Part shown: piece after piece, positions 1,880 through 30,111 of the stretch
Layout of the letters: every line of letters begins with the position of its first letter
Numbering within the stretch: the first letter of the stretch is position 1
Source of the DNA: Halomicrobium mukohataei DSM 12286
Lineage (GTDB): Archaea > Halobacteriota > Halobacteria > Halobacteriales > Haloarculaceae
Assembly: GCF_000023965.1 (NCBI RefSeq)
Contig: NC_013202.1
Span: 2,340,001 to 2,372,000, forward strand
Reading direction: 5' to 3'
Length of the DNA stretch: 32,000 bases
Position numbers and translations under genes: made by a program
Notes under the pieces: generated by a model
What the model saw: only the letters and a program-made list of their open reading frames with translations
Told to the model about the DNA's origin: nothing
The model's database searches: none

Positions 1880-3148
1880 TCAGAGGTCGCCGTTGATAAT
1901 GTCTCGGACGCGTTCTCGATCAAATAGCTGGTGTTCCTCAGCACTGTCGAACGGATTTTCTGGATCAAACTCTCCAAACTGCTTGGGATATACCTGCTGA
2001 GCAAGTATCTCCGTATTGTAGAGATTCGTCAACGGTCCCTGTCGACTCACTCCGCCCGGCTCGATCCTGTTTTCCTGAACAGCAGTCACCTTCTGACCGA
2101 CCGAATTATCCTCCATTGGCAGAACGTAATTTTTGCGGAATTGGTCAAGATCAAATACTGCTTCACCGTTCTCGTCGGAGACAAGATTTCCGGTGTATTC
2201 TAGAGCTCCCTGAATAATGATTACGTCGGGATCGGCTTGTAGAAGCCCCTCGTAGTCGGTCTGCTCGGAGATTTCAAATGCGTTGACGGCTTCAAGGTCT
2301 CGGAAGTGCTTCGACTGTCCTAATTCTCCGTCGAAGCCGACCGGATAAATATTCCCTCTGTTAGGGTCACTCGCATCGCTGAGATACGCGATAGTCGGTC
2401 GTTCCTCCTCGGGTGGTAGTTTCGAGTTCACGGTCCGGATCATCTGGTCGTGAACCTCGACGAACGCCTCGTACCTGGCTTCCTCCTTGAAAACCCGTGC
2501 GAGCTTTTCAAAGGCCTCGTAGATGGATGGTTGGTCGTAGTTCAGGCTTGAATTGTTCCGATAAACGTTCGTGCCGAAAATTGGGGCTACGTTCTCCGAG
2601 ATTTCTTCCAAATCACCCTCGTCCCACGCTTTGTTATACACCAAGCGTCGTTGCGGAAAGAACATCAGGAGATCGGGCTCGACTTCGTATACGTACTCTT
2701 TTCCGTCGTAGTCCGCTTCTCCTTCCTTCCACGTGTATGGGTCAGAATTGGGGTAACGACTGCGAAGGTCTACACCGAGATGTTCGAAGTAGTTGAAACT
2801 CCGCAGTGGTGTCGGAATCCATCCATCGATTTGACCGAGACAGAACGCCATGTCAGTCAATTCCGAGTCTGTACTGAGCCAGGTAGTTGGAACTCCCTCA
2901 AATGTAACCTCTCCTACTGGTTCCATCGTCACCGAGTACGACGTGTCTTCGGGAGTTTTGGTTTCTTCAGGACTGTCCGTCTCACCGCCGGTTGATTCTT
3001 CGATCTTCGGGCTGTCGGTATCAGCGTTGTCGCCATCAGCGCTGTTTCCCGTACAGCCGGCCAGTAGCCCACCGCCAATGACCGCCCCGCCGTACTTCAC
3101 GTAGTCTCTGCGCGTCGGTGCCTCGTGTGTCGTATCGTCTCTCGACAT
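1880..3148 (-). CDS. ABC transporter substrate-binding lipoprotein (iron-siderophore/cobalamin-type periplasmic binding protein), Tat signal plus lipobox
   Basis: 422-aa ORF. The N-terminus TRRDYVKYGGAVIGGGLLAGC carries a twin-arginine motif and a LAGC lipobox, followed by an acidic Ser/Thr/Asp linker. It sits next to the FecCD permease and ATPase. It is markedly AT-richer than its neighbours. Confidence 0.8.
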   Translation of the reverse strand: MSRDDTTHEAPTRRDYVKYGGAVIGGGLLAGCTGNSADGDNADTDSPKIEESTGGETDSPEETKTPEDTSYSVTMEPVGEVTFEGVPTTWLSTDSELTDMAFCLGQIDGWIPTPLRSFNYFEHLGVDLRSRYPNSDPYTWKEGEADYDGKEYVYEVEPDLLMFFPQRRLVYNKAWDEGDLEEISENVAPIFGTNVYRNNSSLNYDQPSIYEAFEKLARVFKEEARYEAFVEVHDQMIRTVNSKLPPEEERPTIAYLSDASDPNRGNIYPVGFDGELGQSKHFRDLEAVNAFEISEQTDYEGLLQADPDVIIIQGALEYTGNLVSDENGEAVFDLDQFRKNYVLPMEDNSVGQKVTAVQENRIEPGGVSRQGPLTNLYNTEILAQQVYPKQFGEFDPENPFDSAEEHQLFDRERVRDIINGDL

Positions 3149-3153
3149 ACTAG

Positions 3154-3178
3154 TTTAGGTCTACCTAAAACACTTAAA
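3154..3178 (-). promoter_or_regulatory. TATA-like box (TTTAAG, 3173..3178) plus 7-2-7 palindrome TTTAGGT-CT-ACCTAAA (3154..3169) just upstream of the binding-protein ATG
   Basis: The TATA-like box starts 30 nt upstream of the ATG at 3148, consistent with a leaderless transcript. The palindrome fills the space between the TATA box and the start, which is a repressor-type position. The same layout recurs at 5681..5704. Confidence 0.4.
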
Positions 3179-3189
3179 CCCGCCGGTTT

Positions 3190-3540
3190 TTAGCCCCCGC
3201 CTAAAATCCACTGTGCGCTGGCATGTCCACGGGAAGCCCGCTCGACGAACTCCTCGGGCAGGTCGTCGATCTCCCCTGCCTGGACGCCCCAAAGGTTCGC
3301 GTACAGCCCGTCGGCCGCGAGCAGCTCCCCGCGGTTGCCGCGCTCGACGATCCAGCTGTCCCCTAGCACGAGGATGGTGTCAGCGTCCTTGATCGTCGAG
3401 AGCCGATGCGCGATGGCGACCGTGGTCCGATCGGCGGTCAGCCGGTCCAGTGACCGCTGGATGAAGTACTCCGTCTTGTTTTCGACGCGGTCACGGTAGG
3501 CGTCCAGCTCCGTCTCGAACGCCTCGAACTCGCCACCCAT
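3190..3540 (-). pseudogene. stranded C-terminal fragment of an ABC exporter nucleotide-binding domain (MsbA/multidrug type)
   Basis: TVAIAHRLSTIKDADTILVLGDSWIVERGNRGELLAADGLYANLW is the H-loop to C-terminus region of type-I ABC exporters. Walker A, the signature motif and Walker B are absent. Its ATG (3538-3540) overlaps the ATPase stop by 1 nt (TGATG). Confidence 0.6.
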
Positions 3541-4490
3541 CACTCGGCTTCGAGTACCTCCGGCGGAGAGCCCTCGGCCTCTTCGGCGTCGCCGCCTGCT
3601 CGGTCGACATCGTCGTGCCGCGCCCGAAGCGGCGTGACCCGCGGCCCGCGCTCGATGACATCGACTTCGGCGTCGATCTCGAACACGTCCGCGAGCAACT
3701 CCTCGGTGACGACCTCTTCGGGGGTCCCGCGCGCCCGGATCGCGCCGTCCTTGAGTGCGACCATCTCGTCGGCGAGCCGGGCCGCCTGCTCGATGTCGTG
3801 GAGGACGACCACGACCGTGATGTCGCTCTCGTCACGCAGCGTCTCGACGATTTCCATCACTTCGAGTTGGTGATGAAGGTCGAGGAACGTCGTTGGTTCG
3901 TCGAGCAGTAACACGTCGGTGTCCTGTGCGAGCACCATCGCGATCCACGCGAGCTGTTTCTGCCCGCCCGAGAGGCTCCCGACCTCGCGGTCACGGAGGT
4001 GTCCGCAGCCGGCGAGGTCGATCGCCCGGTCGACCGCGCGGTTGTCCTCCTCGGTGGTAGTCTCGAAGAATCCCCGGTGGGGATATCGGCCGTGGTAGAC
4101 GAGGTCCTCAACCGTGATCGACTCCGGCGACGTGCTCTCCTGGGAGAGCAGCCCGAGCTTGCGAGCCAGCTCCTTCGTTCCCATCGAGTGAACGTCGCGG
4201 CCGTCCAAAAGTACCGTCCCCTCGTCGGGCGTGAGCTGCTTGGCGAGCCCCTTCAACAGCGTGCTCTTGCCGGAGCCGTTCGGCCCGACTAAGGCGGTGA
4301 CCGCTCCCGGCGTCGCGACGAGCCGCTCGCCGTCGATCACTGGCTCGTCCATCGAGGGGTATCTGAGGACGAGATCCTCTCCCGAGAGCTCGCTCGCCTG
4401 CTTCGAGCCGATAGCGTCGGCGGCCGACTCGTTCGAGAGCGCTTCCTCGCTGCCGTTCCGCTGCCGTGTCTCGGTAGTGTTGCGTGCCAT
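3540..4490 (-). CDS. ABC transporter ATP-binding protein (FecE/FhuC/BtuD-like)
   Basis: Walker A GPNGSGKST, signature LSGGQKQ, Walker B VLLLDEPT, H-loop VVLHD. It starts 2 nt after the permease stop. Confidence 0.9.
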   Translation of the reverse strand: MARNTTETRQRNGSEEALSNESAADAIGSKQASELSGEDLVLRYPSMDEPVIDGERLVATPGAVTALVGPNGSGKSTLLKGLAKQLTPDEGTVLLDGRDVHSMGTKELARKLGLLSQESTSPESITVEDLVYHGRYPHRGFFETTTEEDNRAVDRAIDLAGCGHLRDREVGSLSGGQKQLAWIAMVLAQDTDVLLLDEPTTFLDLHHQLEVMEIVETLRDESDITVVVVLHDIEQAARLADEMVALKDGAIRARGTPEEVVTEELLADVFEIDAEVDVIERGPRVTPLRARHDDVDRAGGDAEEAEGSPPEVLEAE

Positions 4491-4491
4491 C

Positions 4492-5616
4492 TCAGATCTC
4501 TCCCATGTTCTGCTTCTTTCGCATCAGGTACAGGAAGTAGGGACCACCGACGAGCCCGGTGACGATCCCGACCGGGATCTGGACCGGGTTGAGCGCGAGC
4601 CGCGCGCCCACGTCAGCGCCGACCATCAGCGCGGGGCCCACGAACAGACAGCCGACGATCACCTTCTTGTAGTCGCTACCGACGAGGTTTCGCACCATGT
4701 GCGGGACGATCAGCCCGACGAAGCCGACGATACCGGCGACGGCGATCGACGCCGCAGCGGCAAGCACGGCCACGCCCGAGAGCGCGAACCGCACCTTCTC
4801 GATCGACATCCCGAGCGACTTCGCAGTCTGCTCGCCGAGCAGCATCACGTTACACTGCCGCGCGCCGGTGATCGCCAGCAGGATCGCGACGATCGACCAC
4901 GGCAGCGCCATCCGCACCTGCTCCCAGTCGGTCCCCGTCAGTGACCCAGTCGTCCACGCGATCGCCGACTGGACGATGCCGATGTCGTCGGCGAAGAAGA
5001 ACAGCCCCGTCTGGACGCTGCCGAAGACGGTCCCGACGATCACGCCCGCGAGGACGAGCCTGACCGGCGACGTGCCGTTCTTCCAGGCGATAGCGTAGAC
5101 GATCAAAAAGGCGACTGCGCCGCCGACGGCGGCGATGAGGGGCAGGAAGGCCGCCAGCCCGCCGAAGACGACGAGCACGAGCAGGATCATCAGTCCCGCA
5201 CCCGAGGAGACGCCGAGAATGAACGGGCTCGCCAGTTCGTTGCGAGTGATCGCTTGGAAGATCGCACCGGAGACGCCGAGATTCATCCCGACGATAGCCC
5301 CGACGAATACTCGGGGTAAGCGAATGTTCCAGACGATGAGGCTCTCCTTGCCCATCTCCGGCATCTCCCCGCCCAACAGGAACGCGTGCCACGCCTGTTG
5401 GTTAAAGATCACGTCGGGGTTGAACACGGCTGCCCACGCCTGACCGATACTCATCGTGTACGCACCGAAGCTCACTTGCACGAGCCCGGCGACGACGATG
5501 ATGACGACACTACCGATCGCGGTCGTCACGAGTTTCGGGTCGAGCAACCAGACGAATCGACGGGTGTCGCGGGTGCCGCTCGACTGTTCAGTTCCGGTGA
5601 CGGGTTCGCCGCTCAT
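4492..5616 (-). CDS. FecCD/BtuC-family ABC transporter permease
   Basis: Uses the internal ATG (cat 5614-5616) of track ORF 4492..5811, giving 374 aa. The protein is polytopic with typical FecCD sequence (LLGGEMPE..., RLPRVFVGAIVGMNLGVSGAIFQAITRNELASPFILGVSSGAG). The upstream 65 codons of the track ORF are Arg-rich shadow. Confidence 0.9.
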   Translation of the reverse strand: MSGEPVTGTEQSSGTRDTRRFVWLLDPKLVTTAIGSVVIIVVAGLVQVSFGAYTMSIGQAWAAVFNPDVIFNQQAWHAFLLGGEMPEMGKESLIVWNIRLPRVFVGAIVGMNLGVSGAIFQAITRNELASPFILGVSSGAGLMILLVLVVFGGLAAFLPLIAAVGGAVAFLIVYAIAWKNGTSPVRLVLAGVIVGTVFGSVQTGLFFFADDIGIVQSAIAWTTGSLTGTDWEQVRMALPWSIVAILLAITGARQCNVMLLGEQTAKSLGMSIEKVRFALSGVAVLAAAASIAVAGIVGFVGLIVPHMVRNLVGSDYKKVIVGCLFVGPALMVGADVGARLALNPVQIPVGIVTGLVGGPYFLYLMRKKQNMGEI

Positions 5617-5680
5617 CGGTGTCTCCCCGCCTCTACGAGTCCGTCGACGGCGCTCTCGTCGTCGTCTCTCAGCATGTGCT

Positions 5681-5704
5681 TTAGTCTCGCCTAATCCTTC
5701 TAAA
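5681..5704 (-). promoter_or_regulatory. TATA-like box (TTTAGA, 5699..5704), 4-nt spacer, then TTAG-N6-CTAA element (5681..5694) upstream of the permease/ATPase unit
   Basis: Geometry matches 3154..3178: a 6-nt TATA-like box, a 4-nt spacer, a 14-bp TTAG-N6-CTAA element, then an ATG 5-6 nt further on (here the ATG at 5675). Confidence 0.35.
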
Positions 5705-6106
5705 GGTTTCCGAATTTTAGGGCAGCCGAAATCTTCTGTCAGCGCGATGCGCCACACCGCGGACACATCAGTGGCGCACCTTCCGGAAGCGCGGGTCCAC
5801 AGTGCGGACACCCATCGTGTCGGGCGTCGTCATCGCGTCGGCGACCACCTCGGTTCCACTCCAGATCGAGTCGAGTGTTCCAACGTCGTCGGGTCTATCG
5901 ACTGTGTTCTGTCTGTGTGCCCCGGAGAAGCGCGAGTCTCGGGCCGACGAACTCGGCGGCCTCGTCCCCATCAACATCGATCTCGGCGGGTACGGTCACG
6001 GTCTCACCGTCGACGCACGCCAATAGCCCCAGCGTCCCGGCAGCCGACCGCGAGTGTAAGGATTCACGATACGAAGACCGGATCGCAGGTCGTCCGCCGA
6101 AACGCT

Positions 6107-6409
6107 GACGACCTGCAGTCCGTCGCCGCCGATAACGGCTTCCAAGACTGGCATCCCGAGTACGAAATCGCCGCACACGACGTTGAGTGCCTTGTTCACT
6201 ACCGTGGTTCATCAGCGAAAGCAGCCGCGAACAACGCGCTTAATCGAGCAAATGGCTACGCTCGGCGGTGGATGGCCGAAACGTCCGACTCGACAACGAA
6301 GCGCTCGCTCGGCGATACCGTGCGAGCGCTGGGCTGGTATCGGCAGTTCCGTGAAACTGTCCTGATGCTTGCCATCATCAACATAGAACCGGTGTGTGAA
6401 CCGCTGTAA
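6107..6409 (+). mobile_element. C-terminal remnant of an IS4/IS5-superfamily DDE transposase
   Basis: The tail of track ORF 5456..6409 reads AADNGFQDW ... YARRWMAETSDSTTKRSLGDTVRALGWYRQFRE. This is an exact Y-x2-R-x3-E-x6-K (YREK) signature (6257..6301), about 49 aa after a D(N/K)G(F/Y) motif. No N-terminal two-thirds and no recognisable inverted repeats are present. Confidence 0.6.
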
Positions 6410-8826: not shown

Positions 8827-8906
8827 ATACTATCGGCTGTGAATCTGTGAACGATTTCGCCACCCCGGGGTGGCGAAGATCTTCACGAAGTTACAGCCGG
8901 CAGTAT
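8827..8906. repeat. 80-bp modular palindromic element, copy 1 (14-bp arm, 15, 22-bp perfect palindrome, 15, 14-bp arm)
   Basis: Left arm atactatcggctgt (8827..8840). Perfect 22-bp palindrome ttcgccaccccggggtggcgaa (8856..8877). Right arm acagccggcagtat (8893..8906). It lies between convergent genes, and its last base is the T of the TGA stop of the minus-strand gene. Confidence 0.85.
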
Positions 8907-10732
8907 CACTTCTGGAGCCCGAGATCACTGCCTTCGACCGAGCCGTCGTCGATGCGGAACCAGCCGTCGTGTACTGCCCGCTCGGTCGCCTCGGGATCGT
9001 TGCAGTACCTGTCCATGACTGTCGGACCGTCGATCAGGACGTCGCTGTCGGCCGAGAGCCCGACGGTAACGCCGGGCAGTGCCTCCCCGACACTGTCGCG
9101 CTCGAAGTCGTCGGGGCCGTTGATCGTTCCGACGGCGCTCGTCTCGGTGGTCCCGGACAGTTCACACAGGGGGACACCGAGGCCGTGGAAGAAATCGAGG
9201 AGGTGATCGTCGAGGCGACCGGTGCTCGACAGTGCGTAGGTCAGATCGTCGAGCCCGAACTCCTGGCGCAGCGGCCGGTAGGCCAGTCGTTCCGCTGCCG
9301 CGTACTTCAGCGGCGTGCCGCTGCCGTCGATCACGTCGCGCCCGTACCCGGTGACGCTCCCGGCGACCTTGCGCTTGGCCCAGCCGAAGGTGCCGATCCG
9401 GTCCTGAAGCTCGCCGTACAGCTGCTGGTACAGCTTGGGGACGCCGATCAGTACCTCCGGGCCGAGTGCCGGCAGTGCCTCGACACTGCTGGCCCGGTCG
9501 GTGTACGCGACGGTGGCCCCGGCGTCCCAGAGGTAGTAGGCCCCGACGCGCTGGTAGACGTGTGCGACCGGCAGGAGCGCGGTCCCCGTCGCACCGGGGT
9601 CCAGTGGGAGCGCGTCGCTCAGTGCCGCGATGGCCGCCCGGAGGTTCCGGTGGGTCAACGCGACGCCGGTCGGCTCGTCGTCTGCGGGGACCTGATAGAC
9701 GATCGTCGCGAGATCGGTCCCGCGGCGATTCAACCCCGGCAGGGAGCGCTGTGGCGACGCTGGCAGCGGCTCCGTGTCGACGACCACGTCGACTGCCCGC
9801 TCGACGGCCGAAGGCGGGTCATCGGGTGACGCGAACCCGTCGATGTCGGCGGTCGTGACGATCGATCGCAGCTGTTCGTCGTCGAACGAGGGATACAGCG
9901 GAACAGAGACGAGCCCGGCGAGGTGGCTGGCGAGGTCGAAGAGCAGCGACTCGCCGTTCGATTCGAGGTCGATCGCCAGCCGGTCGCCCGGCGTGAGCTC
10001 CGTCTCCAGTAGCCCGCCAGCGACCGTCGTCGCACGCTCGTACAGCGACTCGAAGCTCCGTTCCGTCCGCTCGTCGCCGCCGTGTTCGACCGTAGCCACA
10101 CGGTCTCCGTGTGTCGTCGCCACCTGTTCGAACCACGACGCGATCGGGCCGGCGGGAACGGACAGCTCGCCGCCGTCTAAGACCGCTTCTTCCACGGAGA
10201 CCGTCGTCGTCGGCTGGTCGTCGGTCGTCTCGGGGGGTGACTCCGAGCGGCGACGCTGCCGGAGCGTTCCGGGCGTGTACTCGTAGGTCTCGTCGACGTC
10301 CGTCTGGTAGTACTCGCTGTAGCGCTGGTCTTCGTCACCCGCGGCGATGTGGCTGTCGAGCCAGTCCCGGAGGAAGGTGAGGACCTCCATCGTGACGTAC
10401 TCGCCGTCCTCGTGACGTTCGCGAAAGTCGCTGACCGTCGACGCGAACTCCTCGTGCATCTCTCGGTGGTCGTAGAAACAGTCGGCACAGTCCATCGCGT
10501 AGCCACAGTCTTGCATGAACTCTTCCTCGTCGCCGAAGTGGTACTCGGTGTACCGTTCGAGCTCTCGGAGGATGTCACCGATCTCGTCCTGTGAGTGGCC
10601 CTCGTCCATGGCCGTGTGGAGATCGTTCAGCAGGCCGAACAGCCGCTTGTGCTGTTCGTCGAAGCGGTCGATCTGTGTGCTGTAGCGCTCGTCGTCCCAC
10701 CGGGCGAACGCGTCCTCGGACTCTAGTTGCAT
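8906..10732 (-). CDS. hemerythrin-like domain fused to a degenerate, C-terminally truncated AMP-dependent synthetase/ligase (ANL) domain
   Basis: The start was chosen at ATG 10732 (MQLESEDAFARW...), with a TATA-like CTTTTGA 25-31 nt upstream. The N-terminal 140 aa carry the hemerythrin ligand set (QHKRLF, YHFGDEE, HREMHEEF, WLDSHIAAGD). The rest aligns by eye to long-chain acyl-CoA-synthetase-like ANL enzymes (LTHRNL, GTTETS, DGWF). Confidence 0.8.
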   Translation of the reverse strand: MQLESEDAFARWDDERYSTQIDRFDEQHKRLFGLLNDLHTAMDEGHSQDEIGDILRELERYTEYHFGDEEEFMQDCGYAMDCADCFYDHREMHEEFASTVSDFRERHEDGEYVTMEVLTFLRDWLDSHIAAGDEDQRYSEYYQTDVDETYEYTPGTLRQRRRSESPPETTDDQPTTTVSVEEAVLDGGELSVPAGPIASWFEQVATTHGDRVATVEHGGDERTERSFESLYERATTVAGGLLETELTPGDRLAIDLESNGESLLFDLASHLAGLVSVPLYPSFDDEQLRSIVTTADIDGFASPDDPPSAVERAVDVVVDTEPLPASPQRSLPGLNRRGTDLATIVYQVPADDEPTGVALTHRNLRAAIAALSDALPLDPGATGTALLPVAHVYQRVGAYYLWDAGATVAYTDRASSVEALPALGPEVLIGVPKLYQQLYGELQDRIGTFGWAKRKVAGSVTGYGRDVIDGSGTPLKYAAAERLAYRPLRQEFGLDDLTYALSSTGRLDDHLLDFFHGLGVPLCELSGTTETSAVGTINGPDDFERDSVGEALPGVTVGLSADSDVLIDGPTVMDRYCNDPEATERAVHDGWFRIDDGSVEGSDLGLQK

Positions 10733-10837
10733 ACTCTGGGCTGGCTCCACCATCCTCAAAAGCACCCCCTCCAGTTCTCGGCGGATGAAAACAGAGCGAC
10801 ACGCACAACAGGGAATCGGTCGATCACGCAGACAGCG

Positions 10838-11269
10838 ATGCGTCAACTCACCGACGAAGCGATCGCCGAGGTCCTCGCGGCGAACGGTATCGGCGTCCTC
10901 GCCTTTGGCGAGACCGGTCGCTATCCCTACGCCATCCCCGTCGCCTTCGGGTACGACGCGGACGCCGACGTCTTGGCTCTCCAGCTCGAAGGCGGGACGG
11001 ACAGTGAGAAACACCGGGCGCTGGAGCGACACCCGTACGTGTCGATCACCGTCTTCGAAGAGACCGAGCCGCGAGACACCTGGCGCAGCGCAGTGGTCAG
11101 AGGGAAACTGGTCGAAACGAGCTACGAGGCAGTCGAGACGGCCTTCGCGACACTGGCAAAGCGGACGCGCTCTGCACCGAACCCCGTCGTCTGGGGAGAT
11201 TCGGCGAGCGTGACGCCCTACGAACTACAGATCGAGGAGTGGAGCGGTCGGTCGTTTCCGATCAACTGA
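10838..11269 (+). CDS. pyridoxamine 5'-phosphate oxidase (PPOX)-family FMN-binding protein
   Basis: Uses the internal ATG 10838 of track ORF 10727..11269, giving 143 aa. The pattern MRQLTDEAIAEVLAANGIGVLAFGETGRYPYAIPVAFGY ... WRSAVVRGKL is typical of this split-barrel family. It is a paralog of 19696..20160. Confidence 0.75.
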   Translation: MRQLTDEAIAEVLAANGIGVLAFGETGRYPYAIPVAFGYDADADVLALQLEGGTDSEKHRALERHPYVSITVFEETEPRDTWRSAVVRGKLVETSYEAVETAFATLAKRTRSAPNPVVWGDSASVTPYELQIEEWSGRSFPIN

Positions 11270-11278
11270 ACGACGAGC

Positions 11279-11473
11279 CTACGTCTGGGCCGAGTAGCCC
11301 GCTTGCTCGACTGCTTCGACCAGGGCCGCCACGTCGGCGTCACCCTCGACGCTGGCACGCTCGTCTTCGTGGTCGGCGCTGGCGTCAGTGACGCCACTGA
11401 CGGCTTCGAGAGCCTCTTCGACCGTCTGTTCACAGTGCTCGCAGGACATTCCTTCGACGGACAGTGTCGTCAT
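11279..11473 (-). CDS. heavy-metal-associated (HMA) domain copper chaperone
   Basis: 64 aa starting at the internal ATG (cat 11471-11473). MTTLSVEGMSCEHCEQTVEEAL contains the GMxCxxC metal-binding motif. A TATA-like AATAAA lies about 26 nt upstream. Confidence 0.85.
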   Translation of the reverse strand: MTTLSVEGMSCEHCEQTVEEALEAVSGVTDASADHEDERASVEGDADVAALVEAVEQAGYSAQT

Positions 11474-11579
11474 ACGTTCGCCCGTAGGGACGGCTCGTTT
11501 ATTCGGGTTGCGCCTCGGTCCCCGCCCGCGGCGGGCCGTGGATGGCAAACCGTTTTTCCGTGCGGTCCGAACGACGGGT

Positions 11580-12854
11580 ATGAACGTACGACGCGTCGGA
11601 GACCTCGGTCCGGACGAGCGCCGCGCGCTGTTCGAGCGCGATGCCGGCGTCGACGAGGTCCGCGACGACGTGCAGGAGATCGTCGATCGGGTCCGAAAAG
11701 AGGGCGACGTTGCGCTGCGGGAGTTCGCCGAAGAGTTCGACGGCGTCACCGTCGGTAACGTCGACATCACCGACGACGCCGAACGCGCCGTCGAGGAGAT
11801 CGATGCGGCGACACTGTCGGCCATCGAGGACGCCGCCGAAAACGTCAGAGCGTTCCACGAGGCACAGTTGCCGACCGACTGGCGCGACTCCTTCGAGGGG
11901 CGCGAACTCGGTCGTCGATATCGCCCGATCGAGAGCGCCGGTGCGTACGTCCCCGGCGGGACCGCAGCGTACCCCTCCAGCGCGCTGATGGGCGTTATCC
12001 CGGCGAAAGTCGCCGGTGTCGAACACGTCGCCGTCGCGACCCCGCCCGCCGAGGAGATCAACCCGGTGACGCTCGCGGCCATCCACGTCGCCGGTGCGGA
12101 CGTGGTGTACCAGGCCGGCGGCGCGCAGGCGATCGCCGCACTCGCCTACGGGACCGAGTCCGTCGACGCCGTCGACAAGGTCGTCGGGCCGGGCAACCGG
12201 TGGGTGACCGCCGCCAAGTCGATCGTCCGGGGCGACGTGGCGATCGATTTCCTCGCCGGCCCCTCCGAGATCATGGTCGTCGCCGACGAGAGCGCCGACC
12301 CGGAACTGGTCGCCGCCGATCTCGTCGCCCAGGCCGAACACGACGAGAACGCCTCCGTCGTCGCCGTGACCGACGACGAGGAGCTCGCGGAGGCCGTCGC
12401 AGCGGCCGTCGACAGCCAGGCCGACGCGCGCGACCGCGAGGCCGTGATTCGCGGGGCCCTCGACAGCGCGGCCTCCGGGGTCTTCCTCGCGCGGTCGATG
12501 AGCGAGGCGGTGCTGTTCGCCGAAGAGTACGCGGCGGAGCACCTCTCGATCGTCGCCGAGGACGACGAGTCGATACTCGACCGCATCCCCTCGGCCGGGT
12601 CGGCGTTTCTCGGCCCCCACAGCGCCGTGGCCGCCGGTGACTACGCCAGCGGACCGAACCACGTGCTACCGACGGGCGGCCACGCGCGCGTCACCGGCGG
12701 ACTCTCCGTGGACTCGTTCCTGCGCTCGACGACCGTACAGCGCCTCTCCGAGGAGTCACTGGCCGACATCGAGTCGACGATCACCACGCTCGCGGAGGCC
12801 GAGGGGCTCGAAGCCCACGCAGAGAGCGTCCGCAAGCGATTCGACGACGCCTGA
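11580..12854 (+). CDS. hisD: histidinol dehydrogenase
   Basis: 424 aa from the internal ATG 11580. Full-length similarity by eye to HisD (VRKEGD.AL..F...FD, GPGNRWVTAAK, QAEHD, EHL, GDYASGPNHVLPT). Confidence 0.93.
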   Translation: MNVRRVGDLGPDERRALFERDAGVDEVRDDVQEIVDRVRKEGDVALREFAEEFDGVTVGNVDITDDAERAVEEIDAATLSAIEDAAENVRAFHEAQLPTDWRDSFEGRELGRRYRPIESAGAYVPGGTAAYPSSALMGVIPAKVAGVEHVAVATPPAEEINPVTLAAIHVAGADVVYQAGGAQAIAALAYGTESVDAVDKVVGPGNRWVTAAKSIVRGDVAIDFLAGPSEIMVVADESADPELVAADLVAQAEHDENASVVAVTDDEELAEAVAAAVDSQADARDREAVIRGALDSAASGVFLARSMSEAVLFAEEYAAEHLSIVAEDDESILDRIPSAGSAFLGPHSAVAAGDYASGPNHVLPTGGHARVTGGLSVDSFLRSTTVQRLSEESLADIESTITTLAEAEGLEAHAESVRKRFDDA

Positions 12855-17742: not shown

Positions 17743-19521
17743 CTACCGATCCGCGGGCTTTCCGCCGTTCTCCGTCGGGGATCGGTCCTCTGTCTCTGCT
17801 TCGGGACGGCCACCGTCCGCGACCGCGGGAGAGCGTGCGTTGCCGGACTGTTGGGCCGTCGTCTCCGTCTCGAACGAGCGCAACATTCCGAGCAGTTCGT
17901 CGGCGCGGTCCGCGACGGTCCCGATGTCCTCCGAGACGGTCTCGACGGTCTCGGTCTGTTGCTGAGTGGCCGCCGAGGCCTGCTCGGCCTCGTCGCGGGT
18001 CTGTTCGCTCACCGCGGTCAGATCGTCGACCACCTTGGCGACCTCTTCGGTCGTCTTCGCCTGCTCGCCGGTCGCGTCGGAGATCTCCTGCATCGAGTCG
18101 TCGACTTCGCCGACGACGGTGACGAGCTCCTCGAAGTCTCGGAGCGCCGCCGCGATCGTCGTCGTCGAGCTCGCTACCTGTTCGTCCATCGCTCTGACCT
18201 CGGTGACCGTCTCGTCGGCTTCCTCGCTCACCGACTCGACCAGCGTAGCGATCTCGTCGGCCGACGCGCGCGTTTCCTCGGCCAGGGCCTTCACCTCGTC
18301 GGCGACCACTGCGAACCCGTCGCCGGTTCCGTCGGCCCGTGCGGCCTCGATCGAGGCGTTCAGTGCCAGCATGTTCGTCTGCTCGGCGATCTCGGTGATC
18401 ACGTCGACGATCTCCTCGACCGCGGCGATCTGCTCTCCGAGGTCCGCGACCGCGGTCGCGATGTGGTCGATCTTCGACTCCAGTTCGTCGAGTTCGTCCA
18501 GCGCCTCGATCGCGTCTTCTCGACCGTTCTCTCCGCGCTCTGCGGCGTCTCTGGCAGTCTGTGCGGCCTCGTCTGCCGTCGCTGCGATCTCTTCGACGGT
18601 CGCCGAGAGCTTGCTCATCTCCCGTGCCACGTCCTCGTGGCGCTCGGTCTGTCTGGTCGCGCCGGTCGAGATCTCGTCGACGGACGCCGCGATCTCCTCG
18701 CTCGCCCTGTCGACCTCGTTCATGTTCTCGTCGACGCGATCACTCGCCGTCGCGACCGACGCGGCGAAGTCGGTCACGTCACCGACCGTCTGGTCGAGGT
18801 TCGAGATCAGATCGTTGTAGTTGGTGACGACCTCGTCGAACACCGCCTCGTCGCCGTCGATCTCGTCGGCGTCGATTCGCGCCGTCAGATCTCCGGCCTC
18901 CGCTCGCTCGGCCGCCGCTCCGAACGTCTCGACGAGCCGCTGGAGATTCTCCGACCGTCGTTCGAGCCGGTCGGTCATCTGCTGGAGCTCGTCGGTGTAC
19001 TGCTCCAGATTGTCCGCCATGTGATCGAGCGACTCGCCCATCTCTCCGGGCACTTCTTCGTCCAGTGCAGCCGCGTCGAACTCCTGGCGAGCGAGGGCGT
19101 CCGCCTGCCGGGAGACGGTGTCGAAGTAGCCGTGAACGCGCGAGAACGAGGACACGAGCGTCCCGATCTCGTCGGGCTGGTCGCTGTCCGGTACGTCGAT
19201 GTCGACGGTCCCGCTGGCGATCGCGTCCGCGCGGTCTGCCAGCGTCGTGATGGGGCCGACGATGTCCTCTCTCGTGATGAAGATCGTGTTCACGAAGACG
19301 AGCACGGCACCGAGCAACAGAGCGATCGTCAGCGCGAACTGCGTGATCCCCGAGAGAAACAGCGAGACGACGACGAGCGTCAGCGAGACACCGAACTGAA
19401 TCGCGACGGCAGCGATGATCTTTCGTTCCAGGGACTTGTCGACACCGACGAGTGTCAGCGACCTGCGTATCTGGCGCTTGTACCAACCGACGAGCGTCGA
19501 GAGCATAGGTGTGCGAGACAT
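17743..19521 (-). CDS. methyl-accepting chemotaxis protein / halobacterial transducer (Htr)
   Basis: 592 aa with two adjacent TM helices, a HAMP region, long coiled-coil heptads, and the highly conserved signalling tip [34 protein letters not shown]. Confidence 0.92.
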
Positions 19522-19695
19522 CGACCACGACGAAGGTCAAAGGATCGGGTCGTTCTCAATTATTGAAAACATCTCTTGGGATCGATTTACCGCCAGTCTC
19601 CGTGGTTTTCGCACGAAATTTGGATATTACAATCGATACTACCCGCCCAGACGCGCCGGGGCGTCGCCGGACCACGATGATCCAGCGAGCGGACG

Positions 19696-20160
19696 CTACT
19701 CGTGGGCGTAGCCCGGCGGAAGACTACTCTGCTCGAAACCATCCTGTCGTTCGATGTCGAGTCGATAGACGGAGATCTCGCCCTCGGTCACTGCCGCCTC
19801 GAACGCCGCCGGTCGCCACCCGTCGGATAGCTCGTCCCCGAGACTGTCCCACTCATCCTCTGGCACTCGCTCGATCGGCCCGCGGACGACGACACTGCGC
19901 CAGGAGAACGGCGACGGCGCATCGAAGACCAGGAAACTGGCCGCCGTCGCTCGCTCCGTTAGCGCCCGCTTCTCGCTGTGGTCGCCCGCAACGTACGTGA
20001 AGTACAGCGTTCCCTCGCCGTCGGAGCCGAACGACATCGGGAGCAGGTACGGTGGGCCGTCCGTCGGAAGTCCGAGGACGCCGACACCGCGACTCCGCAG
20101 AAACGCTCGAATCGATTCGTCGTCCATCGGTCGTACACCGAGTGATTCGAGGTCTGTCAT
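19696..20160 (-). CDS. pyridoxamine 5'-phosphate oxidase (PPOX)-family FMN-binding protein
   Basis: 154 aa from ATG 20160. IRAFLRSRGVGVLGLPTDGPPYLLPMSFG ... WRSVVVRGPIE parallels the 10838..11269 product. Confidence 0.75.
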   Translation of the reverse strand: MTDLESLGVRPMDDESIRAFLRSRGVGVLGLPTDGPPYLLPMSFGSDGEGTLYFTYVAGDHSEKRALTERATAASFLVFDAPSPFSWRSVVVRGPIERVPEDEWDSLGDELSDGWRPAAFEAAVTEGEISVYRLDIERQDGFEQSSLPPGYAHE

Positions 20161-20282
20161 ACATCTCACAACTGTGGGTTCGTCGCTCTCTCCGATAAGT
20201 GAACTGTCGATTATTGCTCACCGATAATTGTGCGCTTCCGTGCGGTTTCACTCGCTCTGGCGACCGCCTGTCCACACCAGTA

Positions 20283-20356: not shown

Positions 20357-20881
20357 ATGGCAACCAACACGGCGAACCCACTGGCGACGGACTTCGAGCT
20401 CGAGTTAGACGGGCCGCTGACGAGCTACTGGCTGGCCCTGCTGCGGGTCATCACGGGCTGGTGGTTCTTCCACGCGGGCGTGACCAAGCTCGTCGAGGAC
20501 GGGCTGGCCTACAGCTACGGGCCGATGTACATGCAGGAGATGACGGGCACGGCCCTGGGGCCGATCCCGGTCTGGATGGGCAACAACCTGGCGTGGTTGA
20601 TCGCGCCCGGCGTCCCGCTGTTCGAGACGCTGATCGGGCTGGCGCTGATGGCCGGCCTGCTGACGCGGCTGGCGTCCATCGGCGGGGTCATCTTCATGAC
20701 CCTGTTCTGGATCGGCAACGCCGAGTTCGGCCACGGCCTGGTCAACAGCGACCTGATGGGGCTGCTGTTGTTCCTGACCGTGATCGTGCTGGGCGCGGGC
20801 CGGTACTACGGCCTCGACGCCATCGTCGAGCAGACGAAGCTGGTGAAACGCCACCCGAAACTGCGCTATATCCTCGGCTAA
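20357..20881 (+). CDS. DoxX-family membrane protein
   Basis: 174 aa from the internal ATG 20357. WLALLRVITGWWFFHAGVTKL is the DoxX signature region. Four hydrophobic spans. Confidence 0.7.
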   Translation: MATNTANPLATDFELELDGPLTSYWLALLRVITGWWFFHAGVTKLVEDGLAYSYGPMYMQEMTGTALGPIPVWMGNNLAWLIAPGVPLFETLIGLALMAGLLTRLASIGGVIFMTLFWIGNAEFGHGLVNSDLMGLLLFLTVIVLGAGRYYGLDAIVEQTKLVKRHPKLRYILG

Positions 20882-21189: not shown

Positions 21190-21268
21190 TACGGCCGGCT
21201 GTCGCCGTTTCGAGATATTCGCGACCGCGGGGTCGCGAAATGCTGTACAGACGGACAGCCGGCAGTAT
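21189..21268. repeat. 80-bp modular palindromic element, copy 2
   Basis: Left arm atacggccggctgt (21189..21202). Hairpin ttcgcgacc-gcgg-ggtcgcgaa (21218..21239). Right arm acagccggcagtat (21255..21268). It has the same 14-15-22-15-14 spacing as copy 1 and starts on the last base of the TGA stop of 20896..21189. Confidence 0.85.
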
Positions 21269-21418: not shown

Positions 21419-22669
21419 CTACTCCCCAGAGGGCCTGATCGTCGCCAGTACCCAGTCGTCGGGGGTCGCTCGGCGCACTTCGAAGGGGTCGAACGCCGCC
21501 CGTGGAGCGTCGGCCAGGCGGCCGAGGAAGTTCCCCACCGGCGTCGGGTCCCGGTCACTGACGAGGACGAACGGCTCGCCGCCGTCGAGCGCGGTGAATC
21601 GCTCGCGGACTCGGGCTTTCCGTTCTTCCGGCGCGAGGCCGCGGATGTCGACGGCGGCGTCCGGTACGTCGACCTCGCCGGCGGTCGCGATCGCGGCGTC
21701 GACTTCGCTGGCGAGATCGGCCACGGGCGCTGGCACGTCGCCGGGCGTCGGCGTCCCTTGCAGGTCGTGAGTGAAGGGGAGTTCGGCGAGGACCGCCGCG
21801 TCGAGGTCCCCGACCGCTTCCTCTGGGAAGAGGTCGTTTGGCTCGCCACAGCAGTCACAGACGTACTCGGCCATGTTGACGACGGTCCCGAGGACTGGCA
21901 CGTCGTTGTCCCGGAACAGTTCGACGGTGCGACTCGTGTCGCTGACGCTGGCGTGGAACGGCGTGGTGACGACGACGACGCCGTCGACGGGAACTTCCTG
22001 GAGCGTCGTCAGCACTACGTCGCCGGTCCCCGGCGGGAGGTCGATCACGAGCACGTCGTCGTTGCGCCACGCGGTGTTCGTAAAGAGGTCGTCCAGCGCG
22101 TCGTGGGCCATCGCGCCTCGCCAGGCCAGCGGCGCGCCCGACTCCATCAGGCCGACGCTCATCACGTCCAGCCCGCCGACCGACACGGGGAGAGGATCGC
22201 CCTCCTCGCTGGACTGGACCGGTCCGCTCACGTCGAGCAGTTCCGGCACGTTCGGGCCGTGGATGTCGGCGTCGAACAGCGCCACGTCGTCGTCGGCCGC
22301 CAGCGCACAGGCGAGGTAGGTCGCCGTCGTCGACTTGCCGACGCCGCCCTTCGCGCTGGCGACGGCGATCACGTGGTCGAACTCCCGGACGCTCGCCCGG
22401 TCGTCACTGGAGGGTGTCGTCCGCTCGACGTGGACGCCTTCGACGCCGGCCACGTCGTCGACAGCGCGTAACATGGCCTGGACGACCTGATTCGCCGTGT
22501 CGCCGTCCAGTGCGGTCATGTCCGTTTCGATGGTCACGTCGGCGTCCTCGACGACGACGTTCTCGACGAAGCCGGCCTCGAACACGGAGAGGTCGGCCTG
22601 TGGGTCGCGAACCGCACGCAACGCCGCTTCGACGCGATCGGTCACGGTGTCTGTGTTCGTATCTGTCAT
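21419..22669 (-). CDS. three-domain fusion: DUF59/MIP18-like domain, Mrp/NBP35/ApbC-type P-loop Fe-S carrier ATPase, DUF2249-like domain
   Basis: 416 aa. The N-terminal roughly 90 aa resemble DUF59 (RVEAALRAVRDPQADLSVFEAGFV). Deviant Walker A ASAKGGVGKST, and VIDLPPGTGD. Cysteine motif CDCC. The C-terminus VDIRGLAPEERK...FVLVSDRDPTPV follows the DUF2249 pattern. Confidence 0.88.
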   Translation of the reverse strand: MTDTNTDTVTDRVEAALRAVRDPQADLSVFEAGFVENVVVEDADVTIETDMTALDGDTANQVVQAMLRAVDDVAGVEGVHVERTTPSSDDRASVREFDHVIAVASAKGGVGKSTTATYLACALAADDDVALFDADIHGPNVPELLDVSGPVQSSEEGDPLPVSVGGLDVMSVGLMESGAPLAWRGAMAHDALDDLFTNTAWRNDDVLVIDLPPGTGDVVLTTLQEVPVDGVVVVTTPFHASVSDTSRTVELFRDNDVPVLGTVVNMAEYVCDCCGEPNDLFPEEAVGDLDAAVLAELPFTHDLQGTPTPGDVPAPVADLASEVDAAIATAGEVDVPDAAVDIRGLAPEERKARVRERFTALDGGEPFVLVSDRDPTPVGNFLGRLADAPRAAFDPFEVRRATPDDWVLATIRPSGE

Positions 22670-22670
22670 C

Positions 22671-23537
22671 TTAGAGATCCGGCATCCTGTTGAGGCGGTC
22701 CTCGCCGGGCAACAGGCGACTGTCGTTTTCCAGCGCGCCGCCGAACTGGCGGCGGAAGCGACGCGGCTCGACTTCCAGGGCGCGCTCGGCCGTCTGGCGG
22801 ACCACCGTCGCGGGATCGTCCGTCAGCTCCCGCAGGCGATCGCGGGCCCGGTCCTCGTCGACGCCCCCGAGCATGTGTGCGGCCCACTCGCGGACGCGCT
22901 CGCTGTCGTCGCGGCTCTGTTCGAGCAACAGGTCGGCCATCGCCTCGCCACGGAGCTTGAACAGCGAGATGGCCGCGTTCCGGCGGACGGCGTGGTGGTC
23001 GTCGTCGAGTGCCGTTTCGAGGTCGGACTCGTGGGCCTCGCGGTCGAGATTGTCGAGCGCCACGACGGCCTCCGATCGGACCCACGGGTCGGGATCGTCG
23101 AGCAGTTCGACCGCGACCGCTGCGGCCGCTTCGCCGGTCTCCGTCCCGGAACCGGCGTCGGTCCCGTGGGCGGTCAGTGCCTCGACGGCGAACTGGCGCA
23201 CGTCGTCGTCCGGGTCGTTGGTCGCGGCGTAGGCCAGTCCCGCGACGATCGTCTCCGTCGTCGCCCGGTCTTTCAGCGCGAGCGCGGCCCGACGACGGTC
23301 GATCTCGCTGTCGGCCGCCAGATCGGCCAGTAGTTCACTGGGATCGTCGCCCTCCACCGGCTCGGTGTCGGCGGCCGCCAGCTCCGCGGGCGTCGCCTCG
23401 CCGATGGTAACGTCGGCACGGCTCACTTCGATGTCTTCGAGCGCGTCGATGTCGGCGTGGAGGCCGGGGCTCCGTTCGGGATCGAGCTGGGGGTCCGGCT
23501 CCTCTTCGAGGTGCTTCTCGAACTCGTCGTCGGTCAT
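22671..23537 (-). CDS. HEAT/PBS-lyase-like repeat protein with acidic N-terminal region
   Basis: 288 aa from the internal ATG (cat 23535-23537) of track ORF 22671..24557. Repeated D(D/P)xxxVR(xx)A(vxaL) units: DDVRQFAVEAL, DPWVRSEAVVAL, HHAVRRNAAISL, SERVREWAAHML, ATVVRQTAERAL. Confidence 0.8.
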   Translation of the reverse strand: MTDDEFEKHLEEEPDPQLDPERSPGLHADIDALEDIEVSRADVTIGEATPAELAAADTEPVEGDDPSELLADLAADSEIDRRRAALALKDRATTETIVAGLAYAATNDPDDDVRQFAVEALTAHGTDAGSGTETGEAAAAVAVELLDDPDPWVRSEAVVALDNLDREAHESDLETALDDDHHAVRRNAAISLFKLRGEAMADLLLEQSRDDSERVREWAAHMLGGVDEDRARDRLRELTDDPATVVRQTAERALEVEPRRFRRQFGGALENDSRLLPGEDRLNRMPDL

Positions 23538-24361
23538 CGCTCCACCTCCAGCGAGAGCAGCGTGGCGATCCCGAGGGCGAACGGGACGGCCCGCGGGAGC
23601 GTCGCCGGCACGCCAGCGAAGGCGAGCAACGCGACGCCGGCAAGCAGGGCGAAGCGTTGCTCTCGGAGCGCCACGCTCGCCGCCGTCACCACGCCAGCGA
23701 CGGCCAGCCCGACGACGACCAGCGACGTGCCCACGACGCCGCTGCCGACGAGGGTGGTCGCGCCCGCGACGAACGGATTCGCGAGGCCGACGGCCACTAC
23801 GACGGCGAACGCGCCCGCGCCGACCCCGACCGCCCGCGGGCCAGCGCCAGCGAACAGTGGCGTCGCCGCGATGCCGAGCAGCGCGAGCGTCGAACCGATC
23901 GGTCTGAGTTCGGGCCAGCCGAAGCTGGCCGCGAGCGCGACTGCGACGGCCGCGACGAGCAACGCGGTCGCCGCGCCCGTCCAGACGGTGAGTCGGCGGC
24001 GGAAGCCGACCGCGACGACGCCGGTCCCCGTGGCGACGGCGACGGCCGCGGGCGTGGCGAGGCCGACGGCGGCCGCGAGCAGCCCGAACACGCCGACGAA
24101 GAGGAGACCGACGCCCGCGAGGGGGTCGTCCTCGCTCGCCCCGAGCCACAGTGCGACCAGTGCGGCCAGTCCCGTGGTCACGCCCGCGATCGGCTCCCGT
24201 GGGAGCGTCGCCGGTGCCGCCGGTGCGTTGACGAGGATCGCCGCAGCGAACCGCGCGCCGACTGCGAGCGCGACGACGGTGGTCGCGACGATTGCGACCG
24301 TCCGTCGCCCGAACGAGGCCGGACGCGCGACGGCGGGCCGCTCGATCTCGCTCGCGGTCAT
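23534..24361 (-). CDS. Ala/Gly/Val-rich polytopic membrane protein, unknown function
   Basis: 275 aa with about 7-8 hydrophobic spans. It fits exactly between narJ and the HEAT gene, with ATGA overlaps at both ends (24358-24361 and 23534-23537). Competing frames here give only Arg/Pro-rich shadows. Confidence 0.65.
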   Translation of the reverse strand: MTASEIERPAVARPASFGRRTVAIVATTVVALAVGARFAAAILVNAPAAPATLPREPIAGVTTGLAALVALWLGASEDDPLAGVGLLFVGVFGLLAAAVGLATPAAVAVATGTGVVAVGFRRRLTVWTGAATALLVAAVAVALAASFGWPELRPIGSTLALLGIAATPLFAGAGPRAVGVGAGAFAVVVAVGLANPFVAGATTLVGSGVVGTSLVVVGLAVAGVVTAASVALREQRFALLAGVALLAFAGVPATLPRAVPFALGIATLLSLEVER

Positions 24362-25874: not shown

Positions 25875-25963
25875 CCTCGAACACCGGGCGACTTCGCGGT
25901 GTTCGTCTCCCGAGCTCGAAGATGACTGCCGTCGCTGTGCTTTGTCAGTCATCTTCGAACACC
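25866..25963. repeat. triple repeat at the narH/orf7 junction: 20-bp direct repeat (25866..25885 and 25944..25963, 19/20) plus an inverted 13-mer (25916..25928)
   Basis: gtcagtcatcCtcgaacacc versus gtcagtcatcTtcgaacacc. tcgaagatgactg at 25916..25928 is the exact reverse complement of 25946..25958, and pairs with 25868..25880 with a single G-U in the mRNA. Confidence 0.85.
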
Positions 25964-29936: not shown

Positions 29937-30111
29937 GAGTCAGAAACACCGTAAGCATCGCACAGAGAGCGCCGACGACGGCGAGCGCGAACCCGGTCGG
30001 CGTCGAGCCACCGGCTTCGAGGCCCAGCGCGACGAGGCCGAGCCCGAGCAGTTTGCTCGCCGTGTCCAGCAGTCGATACTGTCGCTCCGAGAGAGTGGCG
30101 GCGTCAGTCAT
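29929..30111 (-). CDS. small two-span membrane protein of the nar operon
   Basis: 60 aa from the internal ATG (cat 30109-30111). It has 8-nt overlaps with narC (ATGACTGA) and narG (ATGAGTGA). Two hydrophobic helices. Confidence 0.6.

Follow-up and report, generated by a model that had tools for sequence, protein, structure and literature searches.

A haloarchaeal bacteriohemerythrin fused to a truncated acyl-CoA-synthetase-like domain with the features of a conserved pseudo-enzyme

Hemerythrin domains occur next to a second domain in several signalling proteins; those named in a 2022 review of hemerythrin sensors include the DcrH chemoreceptor and hemerythrin–GGDEF and hemerythrin–HD-GYP enzymes (PMC9388753). 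A combination of hemerythrin with an AMP-binding domain was noted in one sentence of a 2016 hemerythrin survey, which assigned it to six 'Methanococci' species (PMC4919030), and a term search of the 2022 review gave no mention of a hemerythrin–acyl-ligase architecture (PMC9388753). Here we analyse a gene with this architecture from Halomicrobium mukohataei DSM 12286, carried on a 32,000-nucleotide (nt) stretch of contig NC_013202.1 (positions 2,340,001 to 2,372,000; hereafter the window, whose own numbering we use throughout). The gene, which we call Hr-ANL, joins a bacteriohemerythrin domain to the N-terminal domain of an ANL (acyl-CoA-synthetase-like) protein, and its relatives are publicly annotated as either 'bacteriohemerythrin' or 'long-chain fatty acid--CoA ligase'. 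On the evidence below, the probable role of Hr-ANL is to sense oxygen or redox state and not to activate fatty acids.

Searches of the 608-amino-acid (aa) product against Pfam returned two domains above curated cutoffs, Hemerythrin (aa 21–133, E = 4.8e-13) and AMP-binding (aa 201–560, E = 5.4e-32, profile positions 1–356 of 384), and no recognised signalling output (MCP, GGDEF, HD-GYP or kinase) exceeded those cutoffs. Together with NCBIfam, these profile searches uphold the two-domain architecture, hemerythrin plus an acyl-AMP-ligase-type domain, that an earlier note had proposed from the DNA of this stretch. The start was placed at the ATG at 10732, in agreement with homologue starts and promoter geometry; it has the conserved context GTATG, with a TATA-like box about 25 nt 5' of the ATG. 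A longer open reading frame (ORF) from a GTG at 11032 (708 aa; 11032 to 8906) was rejected, as it overlaps the neighbouring flavoprotein gene and the promoter and its extension is found in no homologue. An AlphaFold2 (AF2) model built from the family alignment reached a pLDDT of 85.2 and a pTM of 0.70. The features of the gene are as follows, with McHr denoting the Methylococcus capsulatus hemerythrin and dN/dS the ratio of nonsynonymous to synonymous substitution rates.

8906..10732, minus strand: Hr-ANL(N) fusion gene, 608 aa plus stop codon at 8906-8908 (Pfam and NCBIfam matches; 63 homologues alike)
8909..10177, minus strand: ANL N-terminal domain, spanning aa 186-608 up to the A8 hinge (Pfam, alignment, AF2, Foldseek, dN/dS)
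9665..9697, minus strand: degenerate P-loop (A3) position, YQVPADDEPTG, aa 346-356; full-length relatives read YTSGTTGxPKG
9137..9160, minus strand: what remains of A5, LSGTTETS; the family consensus is YGxTE, whose Tyr is missing in this protein
8945..8968, minus strand: A7 remnant, DGWFRIDD; TGD has become IDD, Asp kept
10178..10249, minus strand: variable acidic linker, aa 162-185 (mean column identity 0.37; pLDDT below 50 for aa 157-175)
10250..10321, minus strand: conserved aromatic-acidic tail, aa 138-161 (alignments, dN/dS; low AF2 confidence)
10322..10711, minus strand: bacteriohemerythrin domain, aa 8-137 (profile scores, alignment to McHr 4xpx, dN/dS)
10478..10507, minus strand: three-Cys motif C76-x5-C82-x2-C85, invariant, in the loop that joins helix 2 to helix 3 (alignments)

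The ANL half represents the N-terminal domain of a FadD11/FAA1-type long-chain acyl-CoA synthetase cut exactly at the inter-domain hinge. Among the 63 family members that we aligned, none has a canonical P-loop or a lysine at the position of the PKG lysine. The window protein ends at the A8 hinge with DGWFRIDDGSVEGSDLGLQK followed by the stop codon (...DLGLQK), and all 63 members terminate within a few residues of that hinge; in full-length relatives the chain continues through GRKKE into a C-terminal subdomain of about 150 residues. A tblastn search of the window with three C-subdomains gave nothing below E = 0.1, and no ORF for such a subdomain adjoins the orthologues in the loci compared. 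The best NCBIfam ligase model, FadD11, scored 122 bits against a cutoff of 950, and no ligase model came near its cutoff. With Foldseek, the ANL part of the AF2 model matched ANL N-terminal domain structures (FACL13 3t5c, VinN and MenE) at target-normalised TM (template modelling) scores of 0.77–0.84, the targets being crystallised N-terminal domains or chains resolved for little more. Both defects that the earlier note had reported, a lost P-loop and a missing C-terminal subdomain, are therefore real as described, except that the stop lies 16 residues after DGWF and not about 10; its reading of the TGD motif as degenerate is right in that the motif has become IDD, with the aspartate retained (I-D-D). 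Because the P-loop and the C-terminal subdomain with its A10 lysine are lost, motif evidence rules out canonical ligase activity for Hr-ANL, that is, adenylation and thioesterification by the ANL mechanism. The proposal that the ANL part is probably not an enzyme gains from the same absences, which are fixed across the family under purifying selection.

To place the gene in its family, we drew on a search of 5.8 billion proteins, on a genome scan with one genome per species that yielded 39 fusion loci, all from Haloarculaceae, and on the alignment of 63 members. About 67 protein clusters have the hemerythrin plus AMP-binding architecture; those not cut by contig ends are mostly 605–650 aa long, and all that bear an organism name belong to the Haloarculaceae (Halomicrobium, Haloarcula, Halorientalis, Halosimplex, Salinibaculum and Halovenus). 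The aligned members are 42–94% identical and alike in architecture, and in the genome scan Halomicrobium katesii DSM 19301 matches the window at 99% identity. The earlier note had proposed looking for the same fusion and truncation in relatives, and had regarded full-length orthologues with canonical P-loops as the mark of a decaying gene: both defects are conserved in 63 of 63 members, and no such orthologue is among them.

Codon-based dN/dS was estimated from 58 pairs at 70–93% identity, of which 56–57 were used depending on the region. The hemerythrin domain is the most constrained part of the protein (0.03), followed by the post-hemerythrin tail (0.05) and the ANL domain (0.12–0.14). Given this last value, the ANL part is held by selection, though not for ligase chemistry. 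Because the losses are fixed in every member under purifying selection, Hr-ANL is an intact gene with a conserved pseudo-enzyme domain; its ligase features were lost anciently, and the loss is both fixed and selected. A pseudogene or recent truncation is excluded by the family-wide stop at the hinge, the lost P-loop and the dN/dS of the ANL part.

Wider context for this architecture came from an exhaustive profile search with HMMER against 1.84 billion representative proteins, with the best 150 matches listed. Among these matches, both domains are spanned by the Hr-ANL family only, and a dead, truncated ANL domain does not occur outside the fusion; an ANL-only query likewise retrieved, outside the family, full-length enzymes only. 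Four short ANL matches among the best 150 retain the P-loop intact. Each terminates at the hinge or slightly beyond it, or ceases to be similar there, which suggests gene predictions that are incomplete or frameshifted. Since the proteins spanning both domains are, among the matches listed, all from Haloarculaceae, the 'Methanococci' attribution of the 2016 survey (PMC4919030) may be a labelling slip.

The hemerythrin half can be assigned from its profile scores and ligands to the O2-binding bacteriohemerythrin type. It scores 114.8 bits against the NCBIfam bacteriohemerythrin model NF033749 (cutoff 84), 97.8 bits against TIGR02481 (cutoff 51.75) and 50.1 bits against PF01814 (cutoff 25.3). 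Alignment to the solved McHr locates H28, H65, E69, H89, H93, H128 and D133, completing the pattern of seven diiron ligands (H, HxxxE, HxxxH, HxxxxD) in the window protein; the six residues from H28 to H128 are invariant across the 63 members, and the statement that every hemerythrin metal ligand is kept is accurate for this protein. In the AF2 model, helices at aa 22–43, 48–80, 83–108 and 115–130 form a four-helix bundle with pLDDT of about 65–90. Two further features of this hemerythrin are unusual. The CX5CX2C motif (aa 76–85) sits in and around a 5-residue insertion relative to McHr, and the loop may be an extra metal, Fe–S or redox-switch site. The tail that follows the bundle has the invariant residues Y138, Y141, Y150, Y152, P154, G155, L157 and R161 (YxxY...YEYxPGxL...R) and may act as a docking motif.

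The genome scan also returned 16 stand-alone hemerythrins, 61–76% identical to the hemerythrin part of the fusion and about 145 aa long where full-length, which carry the same CX5CX2C loop and end in the tail motif. The tail of the fusion matches the C terminus of these proteins (..EVDDYEF-E/D) and runs on as the invariant YEYxPGxL...R segment. At 15 of the 16 loci (L046, L048-L059, L061 and L062, at positions of about 4000-6150), the hemerythrin gene is followed directly, on the same strand, by a gene for a cytoplasmic protein of about 500 aa that combines Protoglobin and MCPsignal domains and by this composition is a HemAT-type globin-coupled aerotaxis transducer. The pairing joins the genes of two O2-binding proteins, and a description of it was not found in our literature searches. 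In a neighbour-joining tree calculated without bootstrap values, all fusion hemerythrin domains form one clade beside the stand-alone haloarchaeal hemerythrins, consistent with a single fusion event. The hemerythrin half would thus descend from a stand-alone haloarchaeal hemerythrin encoded with HemAT, having kept both the Cys loop and the aromatic-acidic tail.

The promoter of Hr-ANL links it to other genes, within the window and beyond. A palindrome with the consensus TTYYCA-N6-GRGAA (extended form GTTYTC-N7-GRGAAC) lies upstream of the gene, and the intergenic regions of the fusion genes have a fixed layout: a spacer of about 11 nt separates the palindrome from a TATA-like TTTT(C/A)(A/G), and another of about 25 nt separates this box from the ATG. 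In 32 of the 39 genome loci, some of them without the flavoprotein gene, the strict palindrome is found 58–66 nt ahead of the ATG, and four further fusion loci have near-matching variants at an unchanged position (palindrome loci: L001-L045 for Hr-ANL promoters, L066-L069 and L046-L062). The window contains three strict sites against 0.03 expected. These sites and the genes beside them are:

10775..10791, minus strand: promoter palindrome TTTTCATCCGCCGAGAA, which starts 59 nt ahead of the Hr-ANL ATG
10756-10761, minus strand: TATA-like TTTTGA of the Hr-ANL promoter
10838..11269, plus strand: PPOX1, PF12900 (Pyridox_ox_2) split-barrel flavoprotein of 143 aa, divergent to Hr-ANL (Pfam)
17743..19521, minus strand: transducer with HAMP and MCPsignal domains and a hydrophobic N-terminal stretch; no sensor domain detected by Pfam
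19553..19569, minus strand: second palindrome copy, upstream of this MCP gene, with TATA spacing as at Hr-ANL
19696..20169, minus strand: PPOX2, second PF12900 paralogue, 37% identical to PPOX1 over 91 aa
20284..20300, no strand: third palindrome copy, GTTCTC-N7-GAGAAC, in the divergent region shared with PPOX2; the TTTATA box for DoxX follows after 10 nt
20357..20881, plus strand: DoxX-family membrane protein (ATG at 20357) with the palindrome upstream, a putative member of the same regulon

The same arrangement recurs in relatives. Upstream of orthologues of the MCP gene, the strict palindrome with unchanged spacing is found in Halorientalis and a degenerate form in Halosimplex, Halorussus and Halobacterium; similar elements precede the hemerythrin–HemAT operons, and further copies precede a SHOCT gene in Haloarcula and Usp, Mrp/NUBPL and MCP genes in Halovenus. 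We considered a CsmR site and ruled it out, the CsmR motif being TATCA-N4-TGATA. The palindrome is the likely operator of a haloarchaeal regulon not described before, and Hr-ANL would be transcribed from a leaderless promoter under a dimeric regulator. The MCP of the window is 51% identical over its full length to a Halovenus MCP encoded immediately downstream of Hr-ANL, an adjacency seen in Halovenus only.

The divergent flavoprotein gene is the second conserved element of the locus. PPOX1 shows weak similarity to F420/Nim-type PPOX proteins, and an orthologue (48–58% identity) is divergent to Hr-ANL in 26 of the 39 genome loci; the divergent PPOX-family flavoprotein of the earlier note is thus a genuine, widely kept neighbour. 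Loci without it have no alternative conserved neighbour, and a Na/H exchanger, a PAS-GAF kinase, a penicillin amidase or SRP54 are found there instead. PPOX1 and PPOX2 each lie divergently beside a palindrome-bearing promoter, the former paired with Hr-ANL and the latter with DoxX.

We favour a reading in which Hr-ANL is an O2- or redox-sensing hemerythrin mounted on a non-catalytic ANL scaffold and co-regulated with taxis transducers, and we put its probability at about one half. The diiron site would report O2 or redox state, the dead ANL domain would act as a scaffold (offering a pocket for a ligand or a surface for dimerisation or docking), and the protein would work in the oxygen- and energy-sensing network of the cell. 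Three observations argue indirectly for this: the closest hemerythrin relatives are operonic with HemAT, the Hr-ANL promoter has a specific operator in common with a taxis transducer, and the Hr-ANL and MCP genes adjoin in one genus. The earlier note had suggested an O2-, NO- or iron-sensing hemerythrin coupled to a ligand-binding pseudo-enzyme; of this, the pseudo-enzyme is supported, the sensing has indirect support from the HemAT-linked relatives and the shared promoter element, and ligand binding would be a possibility.

Several observations weigh against this reading. The ANL domain does not figure among known signalling outputs, and Hr-ANL contains no known output domain. The MCP family is far wider than the fusion, extending to Halorubrum, Halorussus and Halobacterium, so this MCP cannot be the exclusive partner of Hr-ANL. 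The PF12900 neighbour is specific to the fusion, with 0 of 16 loci of stand-alone hemerythrins having it in the divergent position, and it has no explanation in the sensing model. At the metal site, D133, the canonical seventh ligand (H+5; 10334-10336), is Asn in 25 of the 63 members, and D135 (H+7; 10328-10330) is invariant, which makes D135 the candidate bridging carboxylate, perhaps shifted by two residues in this family. Because the canonical seventh ligand is so often replaced, the metal-site chemistry may differ from that of a classical hemerythrin. The A5 and A7 residues that contact adenosine persist in many members, and the ANL part may for this reason retain some residual chemistry or a nucleotide-like ligand. 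Finally, our literature searches found nothing on Hr-ANL in Haloarcula or Halomicrobium beyond the one sentence in the 2016 survey (PMC4919030).

The strongest alternative, although unlikely, is that Hr-ANL stores or carries O2 (or iron): the hemerythrin would load O2 and release it for a partner, the ANL domain would tether or oligomerise the protein, and the PF12900 flavoprotein would re-reduce the auto-oxidised met form. O2 delivery to a partner has been proposed for McHr and pMMO, and it is to McHr and the DcrH hemerythrin domain that this hemerythrin, of the O2-binding class, is closest in sequence. Retention of the flavoprotein in two-thirds of the fusion loci (26 of 39) would also fit, as would the O2-poor brine habitat and the nar cluster in the window (below). 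Yet the stand-alone relatives pair with HemAT, a signalling protein and not an oxygenase, and they lack the flavoprotein neighbour; moreover, no O2-consuming enzyme is among the conserved neighbours of the fusion, and Hr-ANL is under a specific operator in common with a transducer.

A second alternative, which we consider somewhat less likely still, keeps the sensing function but gives Hr-ANL a physical partner: it would be the input subunit of a two-protein taxis receptor, docking on the MCP, in which Pfam detects no sensor domain, or on HemAT, and conferring O2 or redox sensitivity as CetB does for CetA. Bipartite aerotaxis receptors have precedent (PMC12442639). The MCP orthologue adjoins Hr-ANL in the Halovenus loci, the two genes share an operator in the window, and the hemerythrin relatives are operonic with HemAT. 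However, many genera have the MCP family without the fusion, gene adjacency is confined to one genus, and co-regulation is not the same as physical interaction. A bolder synthesis, which we offer as speculation and think improbable in full, would make the dead adenylating domain the adaptor that plugs a hemerythrin O2/redox sensor into taxis through the MCP or HemAT; the TTCYCA-N5-TGRGAA palindrome would mark an undescribed oxygen/redox regulon of Halobacteria comprising hemerythrin, HemAT, MCP, DoxX, Usp, Mrp/NUBPL and PF12900 genes, and the CX5CX2C loop would be a second redox or metal site tuning the diiron centre.

That Hr-ANL is a new kind of enzyme we regard as doubtful, and a shade more so than the two-protein receptor. 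Here the ANL pocket would bind a carboxylate, fatty-acyl or adenosine-containing ligand, the diiron domain (with the Cys loop) would carry out O2-dependent chemistry, and the PF12900 protein would serve as reductase. The A4 His/Arg persist, as do A5 (YGxTE) and A7 (TGD) residues in many members, the ANL part is under purifying selection, the three invariant Cys could hold a redox cofactor, and the flavoprotein gene is linked. A5 and A7 are nevertheless intact in some clades and lost in others: the window protein (SGTTETS, FRIDD) keeps Thr, Glu and Asp and has lost Tyr, Thr and Gly, and Haloarcula and Halosimplex read VGT. Nor is a new family-specific polar cluster evident. Most invariant residues of the ANL half are structural Gly, Pro, Trp and Tyr, and the ordinary ligases in the alignment have them too for the most part; the hemerythrin part, for its own part, is nearly identical in type to the stand-alone HemAT-linked proteins. 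The weakest alternative, a decaying gene or a split enzyme with its C-terminal subdomain supplied in trans, would explain the truncation and lost P-loop taken alone but is highly improbable, given that both defects are fixed across members spanning 42–94% identity at low dN/dS, that every member stops at the hinge, that no C-subdomain ORF lies in the window or adjoins the orthologues, and that a C-domain in trans could not restore the P-loop.

The region 3' of Hr-ANL and the remainder of the window contain the following further features.

8827..8906, no strand: imperfect palindrome (or hairpin) of 80 nt between the convergent genes, immediately following the stop; its core, 22 nt at 8856-8877, is perfect
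21419-31651 (21.4-31.6 kb): nar-type respiratory cluster with NarG-like molybdoenzyme, Fe-S subunit, NarJ-like protein, cytochrome b and Mrp/DUF2249
21419-22669: Mrp/NUBPL-DUF2249 fusion, in the nar-type cluster
25945-27021: 4Fe-4S subunit, in the nar-type cluster
27018-29936: molybdopterin oxidoreductase, in the nar-type cluster
30104-31501: cytochrome b, in the nar-type cluster

Between the Hr-ANL stop and the convergent BrkB/YihY gene lie 146 nt that hold the 80-nt palindrome, matching the roughly 150 nt of non-coding DNA with a palindromic element reported earlier. As RNA, this palindrome folds into a long hairpin that begins right after the stop codon (-42.6 kcal/mol, z = -5.5), in keeping with a hairpin element between convergent genes. 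The idea that it replaced the 3' end of the gene does not hold: orthologues whose downstream sequence is unrelated also end no more than a few residues from this hinge, and because they do so whatever lies downstream, the palindrome did not truncate the gene. Its 22-nt core reads TTCGCCACCCCGGGGTGGCGAA, and a related palindrome, TTCGCGACCGCGGGGTCGCGAA, with three mismatches, lies at 21218-21239.

The nar-type cluster, which also includes a HEAT-repeat protein besides the NarJ-like protein, agrees with the earlier placement of Hr-ANL in a genome with nitrate respiration. Elsewhere in the window, an ORF at 5456-6409 (plus strand) gives a partial match to IS5-family transposases (55 bits against a cutoff of 140) and overlaps the 5' end of an opposite-strand FecCD permease ORF in an iron-type ABC transporter cluster at 1880-5811. 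A small HMA (heavy-metal-associated) copper-chaperone-like gene lies at 11279-11500 (minus strand); the listed 267-aa ORF at 11279-12082 is an over-extension of it that overlaps hisD (11388-12854, plus strand).

The Hr-ANL family offers a clean natural pseudo-enzyme, in which one domain of a two-domain metabolic enzyme now stands behind an O2-binding module and, since the loss of its catalytic loop and partner domain, has been retained through hundreds of millions of opportunities for codon substitution. By motif evidence, the name 'long-chain fatty acid--CoA ligase' is wrong and could mislead metabolic reconstructions of Haloarcula and its relatives. The hemerythrin clade tied to HemAT, its fusion derivative, the flavoprotein neighbour and the transducer-shared palindrome also provide testable handles on haloarchaeal oxygen sensing, which is poorly understood. 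Haloarcula hispanica is genetically tractable. Four aspects were not found in our literature searches: the pseudo-enzyme nature of the ANL domain, the HemAT-linked origin of the hemerythrin, the Cys loop and the shared promoter palindrome.

Comparison with known systems places each half of Hr-ANL near well-described proteins. Among solved structures, the best matches of the hemerythrin half are McHr (4xpx) and the DcrH hemerythrin domain (2avk), with E values of 1e-13 to 7e-12. Like them it has a helical bundle (modelled here), the H/HxxxE/HxxxH/HxxxxD ligands and a score above the NCBIfam bacteriohemerythrin cutoff; unlike them it has a 5-residue insertion with three invariant Cys, the aromatic-acidic tail and the ANL fusion, and in its family the H+5 Asp is not invariant whereas the H+7 Asp is. 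Closer still are the stand-alone haloarchaeal hemerythrins (L046, L048-L062), the sister group in our tree, which share 61–76% identity, the Cys loop, the tail and a similar upstream palindrome with the fusion. They differ in being about 145 aa long, in lacking the ANL domain and the PF12900 neighbour, in being operonic with HemAT and in occurring outside the Haloarculaceae as well (Halobellus, Halohasta).

For the ANL half, the closest systems are FadD11/FAA1-type long-chain acyl-CoA synthetases, the nearest being the full-length haloarchaeal proteins P0068/P0117 (from a Halobacteriales metagenome-assembled genome) and P0287. P0068/P0117 are 38% identical over the ANL part and have the A4 and A6 motifs of Hr-ANL, and P0068 and P0287 carry the N-terminal extension motif found at the start of the ANL part of the fusion; unlike Hr-ANL, these proteins have TSGTTGxPKG, a C-terminal subdomain of about 150 aa (PF23562) and no hemerythrin. 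We also considered P0068 as a pre-fusion neighbour of a hemerythrin gene and rejected it, hemerythrin being absent from its locus.

As a whole, Hr-ANL matches the protein of the 2016 survey in having the same two Pfam domains in one euryarchaeal protein, although the survey did not analyse its motif loss, truncation, context or function (PMC4919030). It is best classed with the known fusions of hemerythrin to a second domain. The DcrH, GGDEF and HD-GYP fusions of the 2022 review resemble it in pairing hemerythrin with a second domain in a taxis- or O2-linked context, but their partners are recognised outputs (MCP, cyclase and phosphodiesterase), whereas the partner in Hr-ANL is a dead metabolic-enzyme domain (PMC9388753).

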